From the NCBI RefSeq assembly GCF_006345805.1, contig NC_043000.1, positions 145,762,001-145,826,000 on the forward strand: 64,000 nucleotides of DNA. Reading direction: 5' to 3'. The translations under genes were made by a program, and so were the position numbers. This document shows positions 19,348-59,304 of this stretch, piece after piece (position 1 is the first letter of the stretch; every line of letters starts with the position of its first letter). The notes beneath the pieces are model-generated. The model worked only from the letters and a program-made list of their open reading frames with translations, did no database searches and was not told the origin of the DNA. The stretch is from Octopus sinensis. Its lineage: Eukaryota.

Positions 19348-21440
19348 TCAAAAATTTTTTTACTCAAAAATTTTCACCAAAAATTTTACCCAAAAATTTT
19401 CACCAAAAATTTTACGAAAATTTTCACCGAAAATTTTACACAAAAATTTTCACCAAAAATTTTTTGAAAATTTTCACCCAAAACTTTACCCAAAAATTTT
19501 CACCAAAAATTTTACACAAAGATTTTCATCAAAAATTTTTCGAAAATTTTCACCGAAAACTTTACCCAAAAATTTTCACCAAAAATTTTTGGAAAATTTT
19601 GACCGAAAACTTTACCCAAAAATTTTACGAAAATTTTCACCGAAAACTTTACCCAAAAGTTTTTCGAAAATTTCACCCAAATATATTTCGAAAATTTTCC
19701 CCAAGAATTTTTCGAAAATTTTCACCAACAACTTTTCGAAAGTTTTCACCCAAAACTTTACCCAAAAATTTTCACCAAAGATTTTACCAAAAAATTTTCA
19801 CCAAAATTTTTTGGAAAATTTTGACCGAAAACTTTACCCAAAAGTTATTCGAAACTTTTAACCAAAAATTTTTCGAAAACTTTACCCAAAAATTTTTCGA
19901 AAATTTTCACCAAAAATTTTACCCAAAAATTTTTCGAAAATTTTCACCAACAACTTTTCGAAAGTTTTCACCAAGACTTTACCCAAAAATTTTCACCAAA
20001 AACTTTACCCAAAAATTTTCCGAAAATTTTACTCAAAAATTTTCACCAAAAATTTTACCCAAAAATTTTCACCAAAAATTTTACGAAAATTTTCACCGAA
20101 AATTTTACCCAAAAATTTTCACCGAAAATTTTACCCAAAAATTTTCACCAAAAATTTTTTGAAAATTTTCACCGAAAACTTTACCCAAACACTTCCACCA
20201 AAAATTTTACACAAAAATTTTCACCTAAAATTTTTCGAAAATTTTCACCGAAAACTTTACCCAAAAATTTTCACCAAAAATTTTCCGAAAATTTTCACCA
20301 AAAATTTTTGGAAAATTTTCACCGAAAACTTTCCCCAAAAATTTTTCGAAAATTTTCCCCAAAAATTTTTCGAAAACTTTACCCAAAAAATTTTACGAAA
20401 ATTTTCACCGAAAACTTTACCCAAAAGTTTTTCGAAAATTTCACTCAAATTTTTCGAAAATTTTCCCCAACAATTTTTCGAAAATTTTCACCAACTTTTC
20501 GAAAGTTTTCACCCAAGACTTTACCCAAAAATTTTCCGAAAATTTTACTCAAAAATTTTCACCAAAAATTTTACCCAAAAATTTTCACCAAAAATTTTAC
20601 TGAAAAATTTTCGGAAAATTTTCACCGAAAATTTTACCAAAAAATTTTCACCAAAAATTTTTTGGAAAATTTTCACCGAAAATTTTTACCGAAAATTTTA
20701 CCAAAAAATTTTACGAAAATTTTCACCGAAAACTTTACCAAAAATTTTCCGAAAATTTTACTCAAAAATTTTCACCAAAAATTTTACCCAAAAATTTTCA
20801 CCAAAAATTTTACGAAAATTTTCACCGAAAACTTTACCCAAACACTTCCACCAAAAAATTTACACAAAAATTTTCACCAAAAATTTTTCGAAAATTTTCA
20901 CCGAAAACTTTACCAAAAAATTTTCACCAAAAATTTTGCGAAAATTTTCACCGAAAACTTTACCCAAAAGTTTTTCGAAAATTTTCCCCAAAAATTTTCC
21001 CCAAAAATTTTCACCAAAAATTTTCCCCAAAAATTTTCACCAAAAACTTTACTGAAAAATTTTCGGAAAATTTTCACCGAAAACTTTACCCAAAAATTTT
21101 CACAGAAAATTTTACCCAAAAATTTTTCGAAAATTTTTACCGAAAATTTTACCAAATATTTTTTGAAAATGTTCACTGAAAATTTTCAACAGAGACTTTA
21201 CCAAAAAATTTTCAGAAAATTTTACCCAAAAATCTTTTGAAAATTTTTCCGCAAAAATTTTTCAAAACTTTTCAACAAAAACGTTACCCAAATATTTTTG
21301 GAAAATTTTCACCGAAAATTTTCACCAAAAATTTTACCAAAAAATTTTCTGAAAATTTCACAGAAAATTTTACCCAAAAATTTTTCGAAAATTTTCCCCA
21401 AGAATTTTTTTAAAACTTTCACCGAAAACTTTACCGAAAA
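19348..21440. repeat. 2.1 kb satellite of ~11-13 bp variant units (CC/CG-AAAA(A)TTTT-CA/AC)
   Basis: Continuous aaaattttcacc / aaaactttaccc / aaaatttttcg variants. Confidence 0.95.
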
Positions 21441-28405: not shown

Positions 28406-29720
28406 CTTCCTTTTGCATTCGAAAACAGATTTGCCGATTCTGACGTATGGAGTATAGAATAAATTTTATTTTATTTTAGATATTTGCATTAAAAAAAAAT
28501 TAACACTACAATGTTTTCTATAAGCCAACTCTCGTAAGCATTTTATACCACGAATATATAACGACGACGACGACGTCACATTTTCTATATGAATGTGTAC
28601 CACAAAACACATCTACGTATCTTCCTTTTGCATTCGAAAACTGATTTGCCGATTTTGACGTATGGAGTATAGAATAAATTTTATTTTCTTTTAGATATTT
28701 GCATTAAAAGAAATTAACTCTATAATCTTTTCTATAAGCCAACTCTCGTAAGCATCTTATACCACGAATATATAACGATGACGATGACGTCACATTTTCT
28801 ATATGAATGTGTACCACAAAACACATCTATTTCTCTACTTCTTATGAGGAAATACAGTCACTTTCACACACACACACATGCACTCTCGCACGCACACATA
28901 TATACAAAAAGCATGTATTATATCTATTTATGTATATGTATATGAAATATGTGCGTGTGTGAGACAGAGAGACCGAATGAAGGCCACTTACACATATGTG
29001 ATAACACATGCATACACTCATTCACTGTATCTCTCCTCTCTCTCTATCTCTCTCTCTCTCGCTCACTATCTCTCTCTCTCTCTCTCTCTCTCTCACGCAC
29101 ATGCACACACACCCGTTTGATATACACTTACATACACCGTTCACTTTCACCTCCGTTTCACTTTCTGCTCTCTCCTCAAAGCAAATGTCACGTTTTCACT
29201 TTCTCTTCTCTTTCAATTTCTGCTTTCTGTAAAGCATATAGAAATTTTAAAAAATTACGGAAATGAACGAATACATTCGAAAATTGCGTTGCCGATTTTG
29301 ACGTATTAGGTATCAAAAGATTCAGTAATTTTTCGGCTAACAAATAAACGTTATTTTTCATTTAAACATTTGCATTACAAATATTTAACATTATAATCTT
29401 TCTATAATTCAACTATCCTAAATGACATTTTACAACACAACAACGACGACGTCTCATTTTCTACATGAGTGTTTACCTTAAAATGCATCCATTTCCCTAT
29501 CTCCATATGTTATGAGGAAATACAGACACTCACTTTCTCTCTCACATGCACACGCACACATACATACAAAAGTATGTATATATACATGTATTTATCTGCA
29601 TGTATGTGAAAGATAATGTGTGCGTGTGTGAGAGAGAGACAGAGAGATTGAATGCCACTTACACATACATGCAAAATATACACACATGACAACACACACC
29701 TTCACTCACTCACTCACTCA

Positions 29721-39786: not shown

Positions 39787-40099
39787 TGAATTTTTGGTGT
39801 AGCATAATTATAAATAATTTTCTCATGAGGAAATGCAGAGAATGGCTTCCTTACCGGTTCAAATATTTTCCATGCGTATTTGAACATATAACAAGTTTGT
39901 GTTTAACATCACTGCGTAACGCTTCTGCTCTGCATGTATAAATTAATAGCATACAAATGGCGTCTAAGGTAGCTACAGCTCTTTCGATACTGTTTACGAC
40001 TACACTGAACAGCTATTAGTAATTTGGACGCCATTTTGTGTTACTATACTTACATACGGGCATACATACCTACAAATATACATACATAAAATAAATGAT

Positions 40100-40853
40100 A
40101 AATGCACCCTTTTAAAGTCTAGCCAGGCTCATGAGCCCGGTTTCCCAGGTTTCAATGGCGTATGTGTTCCCCAGCTGGACGGGACGGCAGTCCATCGCAG
40201 CGTTACTCATTTTTGTCAGCTGAGTGAACTGGAGCAACGTCAAATGAAGTGTTTTGCTGAAGAGCACAACGCGTCGCCCGGTCCAGGAATCGAAACCACA
40301 ATCTTACGGTCATGAAGCTGACACCCTCACCACTAAGCCACGCGCCTCCACTAAATGTTCCCTTTTAAAGCCTAGCCAGGCTCATGGACCCGGTTTCCCG
40401 GTTTTAATGGCGTATGTGTTCCCCAGCCGGTCGGGACGCCAGTCCATCGCAGCGTTACTCATTTTTGCCAGCTGAGTGGACTGGAGCAACGTGAAATTAA
40501 GTGTTTTGCTCAAGAATACAATGCGTCGCCCGGTCCAGGAATCGAAACCACAATCTTACGATCATGAAGCTGACACACTAACCACTAAGACACGCGCCTC
40601 CACTAAATGTGCCCTTTTAAAGCCTAGCAAGACTCATGGACCCGGTTTCCCGGTTTTAATGGCGTATGTGTTCCTTGGCTGGACGGGACGCCAGTCCATC
40701 GCAGCGTTACTCGTTTTTGTCAGCTGAGTGGACTGGAGCAACGTGAAATGAAGTGTTTTGCTCAAGAATACAACGCGTCGCCCAGTCCAGGAATCGAAAC
40801 CACAATCTTACGATCACGATACTGACACACTAACCACTAAGCCACGCGCCTCC
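40100..40853 (-). mobile_element. Head-to-tail trimer of a ~250 bp tRNA-derived SINE
   Basis: Units at 40100, 40353 and 40605, each starting (minus strand) ggaggcgcgtggcttagtgg...ggtttcgattcc (A and B boxes). Confidence 0.92.
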
Positions 40854-53817: not shown

Positions 53818-55389
53818 ATGTATATTTCTATATATACATATCTAATATATATACCTATATAAATATATACATATATATAATATATATATTTGTATATATA
53901 TATATATATATAATATATATATATATATATACATATTTATTATACATACATATATACATATGTACATCATGTGAGAGAGAGAGAGATAGAAAGAGAGTGT
54001 TGGTGCGTACGGATTGGAGAGTGGGAGGCGAAGGAGCAGAGCAGAGTCATAGAGAGGTAATTATCACAATTGTGAGGAAGGCAAAAATTCGGGGAGAGTT
54101 TAAAAAATACTAAGGATCACAAAAGAAGGAAATGATAGGTTACGTGTTCAATGAAAAATTGTTTAAAGTAATACAGCAGATATATTAAAGTTTGACAGGG
54201 AGATATCGAAAAGTACATATTTAGAGTCATAGCAAAATTAGTAAATGCGGAGAGGCCTACCAATTACGATACAGATAATCAATAAATGAATCTATATATT
54301 TGTACTCTTCTTATTTGTTCCATTGTTTCTTTTGCCAATAATTTGTCACAAATTGTTAAGAGCCACTAATCAAGAATATGGAGCGCATTAACAGATATAA
54401 ACATACACAAACCAGTCGATATTGTGCAGTTAATTAAAATCCAAGCCAGTGATACGTTTACTGTTTCTCTTGTTACTAAAGTGGTAGTCATGTTGTTGAT
54501 CATCCTTCAACATGTCTTGTTATTTATTCATAATGTTGTCATGGGTGTAACACTTGCTGAAGCCGATATTGTGTTAATGAGGTTGCATCTATTGGCTGAG
54601 ATGTTGGTGGAAGAGGAGTTTTTCTTTATTTGTTTTATTATGCGTGTTGCATTGTTTCCCTTCTTTCATTAATCATCAGATATTTTCTGAGAAAAATGTA
54701 CGCAAATTTAAAGTGTCCAAACAACGACAATCATGGCAGACACCGACGCCTATTCTCTACGCTGTTACACTTTGATCTTTGATTAAAGCTACTATTGTGT
54801 AAGTGCGTATGTGTGTGAGAGAGGAAGTGAATGTATGTATGAAGTTATTTGTAAATATGTGTATATACATTTAATTGCATATAAATGCTCATATATACAT
54901 ATGTATATATATATATATAGAGAGAGAGAGAGAAAGAGATAGATAGATAGATAGATAGATATCATACATACACATGCACACATACACACAAACATGTATA
55001 CATACATACATATATATATAAATATAGATAGATAGATAGATACAGATATACATATATGTATACTTATATATATATGTATATATATAGAGAGATAGACATA
55101 TATAGATACAGATATACATATATGTATACTTATATATGTGTATATATATATATATATATAATATTAATTTATCTCCCTCAATTTTTAATATTTAAATAAA
55201 TACGTTCCCTAGTAGTAAGCTTTACCCGCAGTGAATTATTCACTGCAGCCCTTCGCTTCAGGAGTCTCTTAGCGCGCCGGAACCAAGACATTTGAAATTT
55301 TATTCCCGATGTAATCAGTAAGACTAAGCACGTGTCTGTCTTGACACAGAGAGCTGGGGTTAGTCTTTCAGTTTGCATCTCGAGGACCG

Positions 55390-55465
55390 AATGTACTGAA
55401 GAAGTCACGGACACTTGAATTATGCAAGTAATTCTTTTGTTAAGACCGAAACCGAGGTATGCATT
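55390..55465 (+). ncRNA. Hammerhead ribozyme motif, array 2 copy 1
   Basis: aatgta-CTGAAGA-agtc...gaattat GCAA gtaattc...gacc-GAAA-ccgagg-TA-tgcatt; 6-bp stem I, extended stem II capped by a GNRA loop, GUA site after 55459. Confidence 0.8.
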
Positions 55466-55928
55466 TAAGTCTGTTTTTATATTAATTTTTCATATGTCTG
55501 CCCGCCAAATTTGGTTCTGGTGTTCGCTGAATTCTTCCTCTAGAGAATTCCGTTGTAGTTGATCGTTGATGATCTATTCTAGCATTCTGGCCGGCTACCT
55601 AGCAGGCCAGCCCTGCCAATATACACATATTTGAATTTTCTCTGACTCCTCAGATTTTTGAATGCTGGACTACTGGTTTTAAATTGATATTAAAATTAAT
55701 ATTAATTTATCTCCCTCAATTTTTAAATATTTAAATAAATACGTTCCCTAGTAGTAGGCTTTACCCGCAGTGAATTATTCACTGCAGCCCTTCGCTTCAG
55801 GAGTCTCTTAGCGCGCCGGAACCAAGACATTTGAAATTTTATTCCCGATGTAATCAGTAAGACCAAGCACGTGTCTGTCTTGACACAGAGAGCTGGGGTT
55901 AGTCTTGCGGTTTGCATCTCGAGGACCG

Positions 55929-56004
55929 AATGTACTGAAGAAGTCACGGACAATTGAATTATGCAAGTAATTCTTTTGTTAAGACCGAAACCGAGGTATG
56001 CATT
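55929..56004 (+). ncRNA. Hammerhead ribozyme motif, array 2 copy 2
   Basis: Same core and stems as copy 1. Confidence 0.8.
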
Positions 56005-56444
56005 TAAGTCTGTCTTTTATTTAATTTTTCATATGTCCTGCCCGCCAAATTTGGTTCTGGTGTTCGCTGAATTTGATCGTTGATGATCTATTTCTAGCAT
56101 TCTGGCCGGCTACCTAGCAGGCCAGCCCTGCCAATATACACATATATTTGAATTTTCTCTGACTCCTCAGATTTTTTGAATGCTGGACTACTGGTTTTAA
56201 TTGATATTAAAATTAATATTAATTTATCTCCTCAATTTTTAAATATTTAAATAAATACGTTCCCTAGTAGTAAGCTTTACCCGCAGTGAATTATTCACTG
56301 CAGCCCTTCGCTTCAGGAGTCTCTTAGCGCGCCGGAACCAAGACATTTGAAATTTTATTCCCGATGTAATCAGTAAGACCAAGCACGTGTCTGTCTTGAC
56401 ACAGAGAGCTGGGGTTAGTCTTGCGGTTTGCATCTCGAGGACCG

Positions 56445-56520
56445 AATGTACTGAAGAAGTCACGGACAATTGAATTATGCAAGTAATTCTTTTGTTAAGA
56501 CCGAAACCGAGGTATGCATT
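56445..56520 (+). ncRNA. Hammerhead ribozyme motif, array 2 copy 3
   Basis: Same core and stems as copy 1. Confidence 0.8.
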
Positions 56521-56851
56521 TAAGTCTGTCTTTTATTTAATTTTTCATATGTCCTGCCGCCAAATTGGTTCTGGTGTTCGCTGAATTGATCGTTGATGAT
56601 CTATTTCTAGCATTCTGGCCGGCTACCTAGCAGGCCAGCCCTGCCAATATACACATATATTTGAATTTTCTCTGACTCCTCAGATTTTTTGAATGCTGGA
56701 CTACTGGTTTTAAATTGATATTAAAATTAATATTAATTTATCTCCCTCAATTTTTTTTTTATATATATATATATATATAATTATCTTCGTGTGCATATAT
56801 GTGTGTCGGTGTTTGTGTGTGTGTGAGTGTCTGTGTGTATGTGTGTGTGTA

Positions 56852-57120: not shown

Positions 57121-57134
57121 CCTATGCCCATATA

Positions 57135-57943
57135 TATATGTATATATATATATATATATATCTACATATATATAAGTACAAGAACACCATTCTCAGAATA
57201 AAACAAATAATGCAAAATAATGCAAAGAAATTAACAACAAGAAAAGATAAAAACAATTACTCAAAAGACAAAACCAAGGGAGAAAGACATCCAAAAGACG
57301 CCAGTCAAGAGTAAAGTCCCTTGATTCATTGATTCATTGAATTCATTATTAATGCGAATTTACTAGAAATCCCGCAAACGAAGACAGAATGTTTTCTAAA
57401 AAATAGAGGCGAACATCTTTCTCCATATTATCAACTTGAAAAATGTTTGAGACACTAGAATATTTTCCTACTTTTCTCAACATGAAACTAATGGCCGCCT
57501 TAATTTACAGATACAGAAGTTATATATCCATTTACTTATATATATATATATATATTATATATATATATATCTACATATATATAAGTACAAGAACACCATT
57601 CTCAGAATAAAACAAATAATGCAAAATAATGCAAAGAAATTAACAACAAGAAAAGATAAAAACAATTACTCAAAAGACAAAACCAAGGGAGAAAGACATC
57701 CAAAAGACGCCAGTCAAGAGTAAAGTCCCTTGATTCATTGATTCATTGAATTCATTATTAATGCGAATTTACTAGAAATCCCGCAAACGAAGACAGAATG
57801 TTTTCTAAAAAATAGAGGCGAACATCTTTCTCCATATTATCAACTTGAAAAATGTTTGAGACACTAGAATATTTTCCTACTTTTCTCAACATGAAACTAA
57901 TGGCCGCCTTAATTTACAGATACAGAAGTTATATATCCATTTA

Positions 57944-57975
<32 letters not shown>
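57135..57975. repeat. Apparently identical 409-bp tandem duplication with (TA)n junctions
   Basis: agaacaccattctcag at 57181 and 57590; no differences noticed by eye. Confidence 0.92.
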
Positions 57976-57985
<10 letters not shown>

Positions 57986-58159
57986 TATATATATAATTTA
58001 GAGGAATGACCACTAATAGTGGAAAGCCTGTATGCTAGAAAAAGATGTCAAATTCGCCATTTGCCACGAAGAATGTGTTCTCAAGAAAAATTTCAGGAAA
58101 AACCAAAGTGTAAAAATAAGCAAGACAAATGAAAATATACGAAATAAAAAAACGATTAC

Positions 58160-58234
58160 CCATGTAATAATTAGTTTCACTTGTTAATATTTACGTATAT
58201 GGATACACAAACATCTGCAAGATCGTCAGCATAG
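58160..58234 (-). ncRNA. Hammerhead ribozyme motif, array 3
   Basis: Minus strand: ctatg-CTGACGA-tcttg...caagt-GAAA-ctaattat-TA-catgg; copy 2 has gtaattag-TA-catag, giving consensus palindrome CTAATTAG and a GUA site; long G-U-rich stem II. Confidence 0.75.
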
Positions 58235-58730
58235 TCTGTCGTTTAAGAAATAAAATTTCTAGAACTAGATACAGGGCGCTCGACCGAAATCCAGCATGTA
58301 TAAAGCTCCACAAATTATATTTATGTGTATCTTTCAAATGCCTTCACTTTAGCGCACTAAGATCGGAAATTACTCTGCAGTTAATAAACTACAGCAGTTA
58401 ATTTACCGGCTAGAGAACATTTTTTATTTAAAATTAAATAAGGGTAGAAATTGCTATTAATCAATTAAAACCAGTGGCCTAGCATATTTTAAAAAAATCT
58501 GAAGATTACAAATTTTTCTACATACAAAATTTAGAGAAATGACCACTAATAGTGGACAGCCTGTATGCTAGAAATAGATGGCAAATTCGCCATTTACCAC
58601 GAAGAATGTGTTCTCAAGAAAAAATTCAGCAAAAAGCCAAAGTGTAAAAATAAGCAAGAAAAATGAAAATATATGAAATAAAAAAACCATTACCTATGTA
58701 CTAATTACTTTCACTTGTTAATATTTACGT

Positions 58731-59110
58731 GGAGGCGCAATGGCCCAGTGGTTAGGGCAGCGGACTCGCGGTCGTAGGATCGCGGTTTCGATTCCCAGAC
58801 CGGGCGTTGTGAGTGTTTATTGAGCGAAAACACCTAAAGCTCCACGAGGCTCCGGCAGAGATGGTGGTGATTCCTGCTGTACTATTTCACCACAACTTTC
58901 CCTCACTCTTACTTCCTCTTTCTGTTGTACCTGTATTTCAAAGGGCCGGCCTTGTCACTCTCTGTGTCACGCTGAATATCCCCGAGAACTGCGTTAAGGG
59001 TACACGTGTCTGTGGAGTGCTCAGCCACTTACACGTTAATTTCACGAGCAGGCTGTTCCGTTGATCGGATCAACCAGAACCCTCGTCGTCGTAACCGACG
59101 GAGTGTTTCC
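58731..59110 (+). mobile_element. Full-length tRNA-derived SINE with an 11-bp TSD
   Basis: A box tggcccagtgg, B box ggtttcgattcc; TSD aatatttacgt at 58720-58730 and 59111-59121. Confidence 0.93.
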
Positions 59111-59304
59111 AATATTTACGTATATGGATACGTAAATATTGACGTCTATTTCTAGTATACAGGCTTTCCACTATTAGTGGTCATTCCTCTAAATTTTGTA
59201 TGTATAAAACTTTTTAATCTTCGGATTTTTTAAAATATGCTAGGCCACTGGTTTTAATTGACTAATATCAATTTCTGGCCTTATGTAATTTTATATATAT
59301 ATAT

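Follow-up and report, generated by a model that had tools for sequence, protein, structure and literature searches.

A 546-nt hammerhead retrozyme of Octopus sinensis with paired Penelope-type insertion ends

Animal retrozymes that lack long terminal repeats (non-LTR retrozymes) are defined by non-coding units that are arranged in tandem, contain type I hammerheads and are expressed as circles of 170-400 nt, and Penelope-like elements (PLEs) are their likely mobilisers (PMC7229834). In a 2026 preprint by Li, Clavereau and Pollet, retrozyme units span 51-972 bp and Xenopus families are linked to pseudo-long terminal repeats (pLTRs; 10.64898/2026.07.22.740005). For PLEs themselves, hammerheads acting as dimers have been reported and a circular template has been proposed (PMC4209133). 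Here we analyse a tandem hammerhead repeat at positions 55160 to 56755 of a 64,000-nt stretch of the Octopus sinensis genome, referred to as the window (NCBI RefSeq assembly GCF_006345805.1, contig NC_043000.1, forward strand, 145,762,001 to 145,826,000). The evidence suggests that this array is probably an insertion of a 546-nt retrozyme without an open reading frame (ORF), likely mobilised in trans by a PLE and probably copied from a unit-length circular RNA, while its third unit probably arose by local duplication.

The array consists of 3.05 tandem units flanked on both sides by TA-rich tracts (Table 1), and the three head-to-tail copies described in a first-pass annotation of this DNA are confirmed. 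A fourth start at 56729 yields another 27 nt before the sequence passes into (T)n(TA)n. The annotation had taken these 27 nt as a sequence shared by both ends of the array; the partial fourth unit is indeed present, but it is not a terminal repeat, as the 3′ end is a fixed site of the family (site A, see below) and the 5′ ends of copies vary. The array has no credible ORF, as also claimed before: its sole stop-to-stop frame of at least 100 amino acids (103 amino acids, minus strand) has no Pfam match. No tRNA was detected in the window with ARAGORN.

Each unit harbours a type I hammerhead that agrees with the core CUGANGA...GAAA...UH closed by stem I. Stem I has 7 bp, the core segments CUGAAGA and GAAA enclose an extended stem II of ~45 nt with a GCAA loop, and a stem III that is short and palindromic leads to GUA. 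Positions 10.1 and 11.1 are occupied by A and C instead of the usual G-C. The predicted cuts (Table 1) agree with those proposed in the first-pass annotation. A comparison with Rfam, which the annotation had recommended, returned no hammerhead match in the array at E <= 1 or at E <= 10 and no other Rfam ribozyme on either strand, so that the hammerhead call rests on the core sequence and on covariation; a copy from an older subfamily reached 14.7 bits (E 4.4) against the Rfam hammerhead model. A strand-symmetric core scan for ribozymes in both polarities, as in a viroid-like ambisense RNA replicon, found hammerheads in the unit sense only. A hammerhead-like string on the minus strand at ~55635-55655 was dismissed, as it lacks a stem II and the older subfamilies do not retain it.

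A BLAST search of the whole genome (2.72 Gb) with unit 2 as query gave 159 matches in the best 40 of 1225 candidates. The copies have permuted tandem ends, for which the annotation had suggested looking. An exact 20-mer from the hammerhead occurs 297 times, compared to no occurrence of its reversed control, and the repeat is thus not confined to a single locus; the first 100 listed matches of this 20-mer correspond to 61 loci. The ends were studied in 78 distinct loci, picked by similarity and not by end type: the best BLAST matches contributed 40, and exact matches to the hammerhead or to the tail (the segment preceding site A) another 38. Stretches that overlapped were left out, as were L043 and L123, which are duplicated loci. 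Copies are dispersed, range from monomers to multimers and show no LTR organisation, and the unit has a GC content of 38.8%, below the 45-50% ceiling for non-LTR retrozymes. On average, 146 long segments deviate by 1.7% from the majority base of each alignment column, indicating that the family is young. By its organisation the family is a non-LTR retrozyme, i.e. a non-autonomous PLE-type element, as the first-pass annotation had proposed; it is a non-coding, dispersed tandem hammerhead repeat with PLE-type insertion ends. While this kind of element is known, the family itself was not found in print; our literature search, which covered listings and the openings of abstracts but not supplements, Repbase or Dfam, where an earlier catalogue entry may exist, yielded no description of it or of any cephalopod retrozyme.

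Public contigs with loose ends led to older relatives of the family: exact genome-wide matches number 555 for a 20-mer of the tail and 1303 for a common 19-mer of the tail. Full older units form groups at 68-87% mutual identity with outliers at 50-62%, one of which lies within the window (57982-59290). The older subfamilies are 55-88% identical to the young family and keep the hammerhead; all their units are ~550 nt long and non-coding, and one locus contains eight in tandem. Contigs from three runs guessed to be RNA and from one run of unclear kind span a unit junction together with the cut site; tandem DNA looks alike, and from contigs of this type neither the level and strand of an RNA nor its ends or circularity can be read.

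The ends of the copies bear on their mode of insertion. The 78 loci contain 133 arms. Of these, 63 terminate at site A (unit position ~20-40), 58 do so at site B (~465-478), ~100 nt away, and the other 12 have different ends; nearly all run on into (TA)n. The 5′ ends are variable and scattered all round the unit. As both flanks of a copy are (TA)n, any target site duplication would be masked. The copies therefore bear the marks of PLE insertion, namely a (TA)n target, 5′ truncation, an inverted 5′ copy and a tail at one end. Published PLE insertions have an inverted 5′-truncated copy and a tail of 30-40 nt at one end (PMC8557442, PMC3846280). For an Anolis PLE it is reported that the purified protein cuts and extends both target strands in vitro and that reverse transcription starts inside the RNA at two sites bounding the tail (PMC11167929).

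The two ends are combined according to a simple rule. Fifty head-to-head pairs were found, of which 40 join an arm ending at A to an arm ending at B (39 distinct, as L030 is a local duplicate), none joins A to A or B to B, and 10 have an untyped end. An A+B combination is thus present in 39 of 39 distinct head-to-head insertions with both ends typed (p 4e-12 versus free choice). In the older subfamilies, where many loci were picked by a motif near A, 34 head-to-head pairs comprise 20 A+B, 2 A+A, 1 B+B and 11 with an untyped end, and 3 of these 11 proved to be A+B on inspection.

Head-to-head copies might also arise by fold-back self-priming of one cDNA, as proposed in PMC3846280, with arrays growing only after insertion by unequal crossing-over in the manner of satellites. 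A near-palindromic centre in 5 of the 39 pairs would agree with this, and arrays with the unit patterns ABB and ABAB prove that local duplication occurs. However, 13 of the 39 A+B pairs consist of arms that are not nested one within the other, an arrangement that a fold-back copy cannot produce, and the phases of the pair centres look random (5 within 20 nt, 2.9 expected). Satellite-like growth is further contradicted by the observation that adjacent units are as diverged as opposite arms, placing the origin of most multimers at insertion. Nesting and divergence data thus largely refute this explanation, to which we assign a very small probability. Instead, the non-nested pairs, centres no more palindromic than by chance and the short overlaps (0-7 nt at most head-to-head junctions) fit two independent cDNAs joined by microhomology.

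We then compared the predicted RNA fold across copies. A natural 546-nt copy folded as a circle adopts a branched structure of -139.9 kcal/mol in the prediction, compared to -116.7 +/- 5.2 kcal/mol for 40 shuffled sequences (z -4.4). Four of the five pairings listed in the first-pass annotation (gcagtgaa/ttcactgc, aagactaa/ttagtctt, ctggcc.gcta/tagc.ggccag and ccggaaccaa/ttggttctgg) recur in this circular fold with probabilities of 0.88-0.99, while the fifth, aggagtc/gactcct, is missing from it and is not kept in the older subfamilies. For 23 natural copies RNAalifold predicts 70 pairs, 20 of them with changes on both sides. In a 129-pair structure derived from a young copy, 88.4% of the cells pair across the same 23 copies. 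Changes on both sides affect 31 of the 129 pairs, compared to 14.9 +/- 2.5 in 500 shuffles and 10-22 when the structure is slid along the alignment, although this control ignores relatedness and the structure was itself taken from a member of the alignment. In the hammerhead, 5 of the 7 pairs of stem I have both-side changes. The covariation expected by the first-pass annotation is hence observed; it supports selection on the RNA fold, without measuring it. The older subfamilies preserve the hammerhead and the predicted branched fold via compensatory changes. Most of them have G10.1-C11.1, a CCGG stem III and a GUAA loop on stem II; at positions 10.1/11.1, 25 of 41 pattern matches in older-subfamily loci are G-C and 7 are A.C, the remainder being mixed and partly unrelated elements. 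When two copies are co-folded they are predicted to pair via their stem III strands in the fashion of a double hammerhead.

Several further features of hammerheads were noticed. A double change, G210T+G212A (unit positions 210-212, window 55365-55368), occurs in 22 of 126 pattern-matched units, on different haplotypes and usually in part of a locus's units only. As the change completes the pairing of a hairpin formed with the hammerhead core, which lies 22 nt downstream (-4.2 to -6.5 kcal/mol as folded DNA), it is likely a template-switch (quasi-palindrome) mutation. In its RNA form the hairpin would sequester the hammerhead core. An unrelated short hammerhead family at L093:1600-1800 and in the flank of L023 also has A facing C at 10.1/11.1; its stem II is GGC/GCC and its (TA)n end lies ~100-130 nt downstream.

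To define the template we compared units within and between arms. More than half of the arms (68 of 133) are longer than one unit, the longest reaching 2587 nt, and 111 of 133 cross the predicted cut site, where 5′ ends do not pile up (3 versus 2.7 expected). The template would thus be either circular or a multimer that had not been cleaved. Fifteen lineage markers, in at least 21 combinations, are present in every covering unit of an arm in 112 of 118 cases, and the six exceptions all come from L032, a locus of mixed composition. Counting across entire loci, with rarer variants and nested insertions included, gives 141 of 172. With homopolymer-prone, end and hotspot positions masked, divergence is 0.94% between adjacent units (54 pairs), 1.07% between opposite arms (61 pairs, p 0.85) and 2.45% between different loci. 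As adjacent units are as diverged as opposite arms, and less so than separate loci, most multimers appear to have been made at insertion from one haplotype. A linear multimeric source is disfavoured, since new mutations would pass into one unit only. The simplest reading of these patterns is a unit-length template that was read more than once.

Locus L032 is a single insertion in which two lineage haplotypes are mixed inside both arms; a template switch between two RNAs is possible. We also considered a heterodimeric circle as template, suggested by the unit patterns ABAB at L048 and L099 and ABA at L097. This was rejected, as there are also arrays of the types ABB, AAB and AAA, and all suggestive arrays except L097 can be accounted for by local duplication.

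The same non-autonomous PLE-type element could instead be copied from uncleaved linear multimers, with a hammerhead that is weak or serves another step and no circular template. The passage of 111 of 133 arms through the cut site with no pile-up of 5′ ends speaks for such RNAs, arrays of the length needed for a source exist (the longest arm mentioned above), hammerhead mutants leave insertion of the Anolis PLE unaffected in vitro (PMC11167929), and A10.1.C11.1 may slow cleavage. However, the markers occupy all units of an arm in nearly all cases and in many combinations, 5′ truncation would presumably shorten the arrays in every generation unless a monomer were re-read, and the hammerhead is retained with compensatory changes across subfamilies. 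We therefore regard a purely multimeric template as unlikely, though worth more weight than the other general alternatives, and favour a unit-length circle.

Candidate mobilisers are present in the same genome. A search for GIY-YIG-bearing PLEs gave 147 matches in the best 150 of 5029 candidates. Several PLE families have intact frames of 775-883 amino acids that combine reverse transcriptase (RT) and GIY-YIG domains and carry the Neptune-clade cysteine motif. The intact Neptune-type families are flanked by (TA)n, have two 3′ ends and contain hammerhead-like motifs; their tails, in the cases where one was seen, measure ~40 nt. The 3′ regions at L057, L058, L085 and L278 belong to autonomous Neptune-type PLEs with a U3-A8 variant of the hammerhead core, which also have a second, upstream frame of 280-480 amino acids overlapping the RT frame. 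Another PLE family (L232-L245, L282, L289) has a short CA/TG-rich 3′ region in which no hammerhead is visible by eye. No sequence in common with the unit was found in the GIY-YIG family search, with two endonuclease queries, in 36 longer PLE stretches or in 60 extra tail loci. PLEs that apparently neighbour units at L091, L087 and L224 turned out to be separate insertions behind microsatellites.

The PLE-like insertion signature raises the question whether the unit is a pLTR or the 3′ part of an autonomous PLE, so that the loci would be truncated stumps; PLE copies were sampled in part (the best 150 candidates mentioned above), and such an element might lie among the others. Against this, units join seamlessly head to tail up to eight times with no intervening ORF, none abuts a PLE ORF in the 235 loci with unit matches, and the 133 arms show no further fixed junction, beyond A and B, of the kind expected at the border of an ORF. 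Judged by its sequence context, none of the examined copies of the unit is an ordinary pLTR, and we consider an unsampled autonomous parent of this kind very unlikely.

A number of observations weigh against a PLE-mobilised circle. An autonomous partner was not found: no unit is joined to a PLE ORF in 358 loci (235 with unit matches and 131 with PLE matches, many overlapping), and no unit-like sequence was found in the PLE 3′ regions or pLTRs sampled so far, a sampling that is incomplete. The tail of ~100 nt is longer than the 30-40 nt in print and the ~40 nt of the local autonomous families. The haplotype pattern expected from a circle would equally result if the RT jumped from the 5′ end of a linear monomer to its 3′ end, and some arrays have grown locally (ABB at the array locus, ABAB at L048 and L099). 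With regard to the ribozyme, A10.1.C11.1 is present in all intact young-family copies listed, and the hammerhead is unformed in the circular minimum-energy fold. In published work, the Anolis PLE inserts uncleaved RNA in vitro (PMC11167929), and of nine Xenopus dimers with predicted hammerheads one was cleaved and eight were not (10.64898/2026.07.22.740005). The limits of the covariation control given above belong here as well.

Based on these data we propose the following course of events. A tandem copy would be transcribed, and the hammerheads, for which motif and covariation speak, would cleave the multimer to monomers. Given the short, palindromic stem III, they would likely act as double hammerheads. 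Dimer-cleaving variants of PLE hammerheads are reportedly the subject of a 2017 paper by Lunse et al. By analogy with other retrozymes, and in line with the haplotype pattern, a monomer would be ligated to a circle. A PLE RT-endonuclease may then cut both strands of a (TA)n tract and prime one cDNA at A and the other at B, a step suggested by the fixed ends and the A+B rule. Each cDNA would run for a variable length, as seen in arms that often exceed one unit and pass the cleavage site, and the two would be joined head to head at the short overlaps seen in the junctions. Alternatively, one arm may be lost, leaving a plain tandem such as the array studied here.

More tentatively, and with somewhat less than even confidence, we suggest that the family belongs to a long-lived lineage of ORF-less hammerhead RNA circles with a conserved fold and no surviving sequence link to an autonomous element. 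Its copies would arise by twin rolling-circle reverse transcription, in which a dimeric PLE enzyme primes both cut strands, one at each of two sites 100 nt apart on a monomeric circle, and the two cDNAs roll independently. If true, this would provide direct genomic evidence that retrozyme arrays arise when a monomer is read repeatedly, and both the PLE tail and the inverted repeats would follow from one step. Published support for the insertion of retrozymes from circles by PLE enzymes consists, in the sources available, of co-occurrence and pLTR homology. In the young family the PLE insertion signature is seen directly and is accompanied by a haplotype pattern that points to a unit-length template. 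The strict A+B pairing with independently truncated arms favours paired priming over fold-back and supplies exact start sites for an in vitro assay of the origin of PLE tails and inverted repeats. As the kind of element is already known, the surprise is moderate; the value lies in the clean A+B rule and in the haplotype evidence.

At the array locus itself the history is more complex. Units 2 and 3 have in common a deletion of 28-29 nt and the substitutions T167C, C256A and T317C, all absent from unit 1, and the deletion junction occurs twice in the genome, both times at this locus. The two units differ from each other by 1 substitution in 402 compared positions and by single-base indels. The rolling reverse transcription invoked in the first-pass annotation is thus in agreement with the family-wide pattern, which fits re-reading of a unit-length template, but not with the trimer from which it was deduced: because units 2 and 3 have private changes that unit 1 lacks, an origin of the array in three rounds on a single circle is not supported, and the third unit was probably added later by local duplication. 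The simpler account is an insertion of 2.05 units ending at A, followed by the deletion and a local duplication of unit 2, or by a duplication in the assembly. That the trimer is an assembly artefact of a dimer, which would concern the copy number here and not the family, is suggested by the near identity of units 2 and 3 and by a 409-nt duplication bounded by (TA)n 400 nt from the array. One substitution separates the two units, however, and a real local duplication accounts for the identical pattern, so that we consider an artefact rather improbable.

Table 1. Coordinates of the array, its flanks and a related older element (window positions)
Feature	Position	Strand	Remarks
TA-rich microsatellite	54890..55159	.	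left flank, insertion target
Unit 1	55160..55697	+	538 nt, family-type, without the 28-nt deletion
Unit 1 hammerhead	55389..55466	+	predicted cut after 55459
Unit 2	55698..56214	+	517 nt, with locus-private deletion and three substitutions common to unit 3
Unit 2 hammerhead	55928..56005	+	predicted cut after 55998
Unit 3	56215..56728	+	514 nt, probable local duplicate of unit 2
Unit 3 hammerhead	56444..56521	+	predicted cut after 56514
Site B	56639..56655	+	the other fixed 3′ end in the family; the array continues through it; also at 55611 and 56126
Tail	56650..56755	+	~100 nt, site B to site A; insertion terminates at site A
(T)n(TA)n	56756..56781	.	right flank
Older superfamily member	57982..59290	.	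separate and much older (53-62% identity), head to head; minus arm ends at B (57982), plus arm near A

The older member in the window is split at ~58733-59112 by a repeat resembling a short interspersed element, with an 11-nt duplication on both sides. The 409-nt unit near the array occupies 57130-57993 as two copies at 98% identity between (TA)n tracts, a local or an assembly duplication; similar duplications of whole insertions are seen in L018 and L030. The window also contains a 2-kb minisatellite with a 13/25-nt period (19365-21440) and tandem repeats at 28406-28829 (214 nt, two copies) and 40099-40853 (252 nt, three copies).

The comparison with known systems places the family closest to the animal non-LTR retrozymes (PMC7229834; 10.64898/2026.07.22.740005). 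In common with these it has non-coding tandem units of low GC content, one type I hammerhead per unit, dispersed copies from monomers to multimers and PLEs in the same genome. The unit had been thought unusually long; its 546 nt exceed the 150-450 bp of PMC7229834 but lie within the 51-972 bp of the preprint. For 24 of 57 Xenopus families a homologous element is reported (10.64898/2026.07.22.740005), whereas no homologous pLTR was found for the octopus family in the PLE loci sampled. Fixed 3′ ends, head-to-head insertions and a haplotype test are features of the present analysis that the available text of PMC7229834 and of the preprint does not describe for retrozymes. Cleavage and circles, on the other hand, have been demonstrated for published retrozymes, while for the octopus family they are proposed from its sequence.

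The insertions resemble those of PLEs (PMC3846280, PMC8557442, PMC11167929) in their 5′ truncation, partial tandems, inverted truncated copy and extension at one end only, as well as in AT-rich or (TA)n targets and two internal RT start sites. Unlike PLEs, the family has no ORF and its tail is about 100 nt instead of 30-40 nt long. The genomic copies follow a near-strict rule of one A and one B end, whereas the Anolis in vitro study reports no difference in start site between the strands (PMC11167929). The ribozyme shares with the minimal PLE hammerheads (PMC4209133) a type I core, a long stem II, a short palindromic stem III and a purine after A9. It differs from them in a stem II of ~45 nt with a GNRA loop, in being missed by the Rfam models and, at a G10.1-C11.1 pair that is highly conserved according to PMC4209133, in the A.C of the young family and one older subfamily. 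Like MRC1 of Chlamys (PMC8557442), the family is a non-autonomous element of PLE type with multi-copy head-to-tail insertions. The non-autonomous elements of Chlamys generally resemble their autonomous family at the 3′ end and are without canonical hammerheads (PMC8557442); in the octopus family the reverse is the case.

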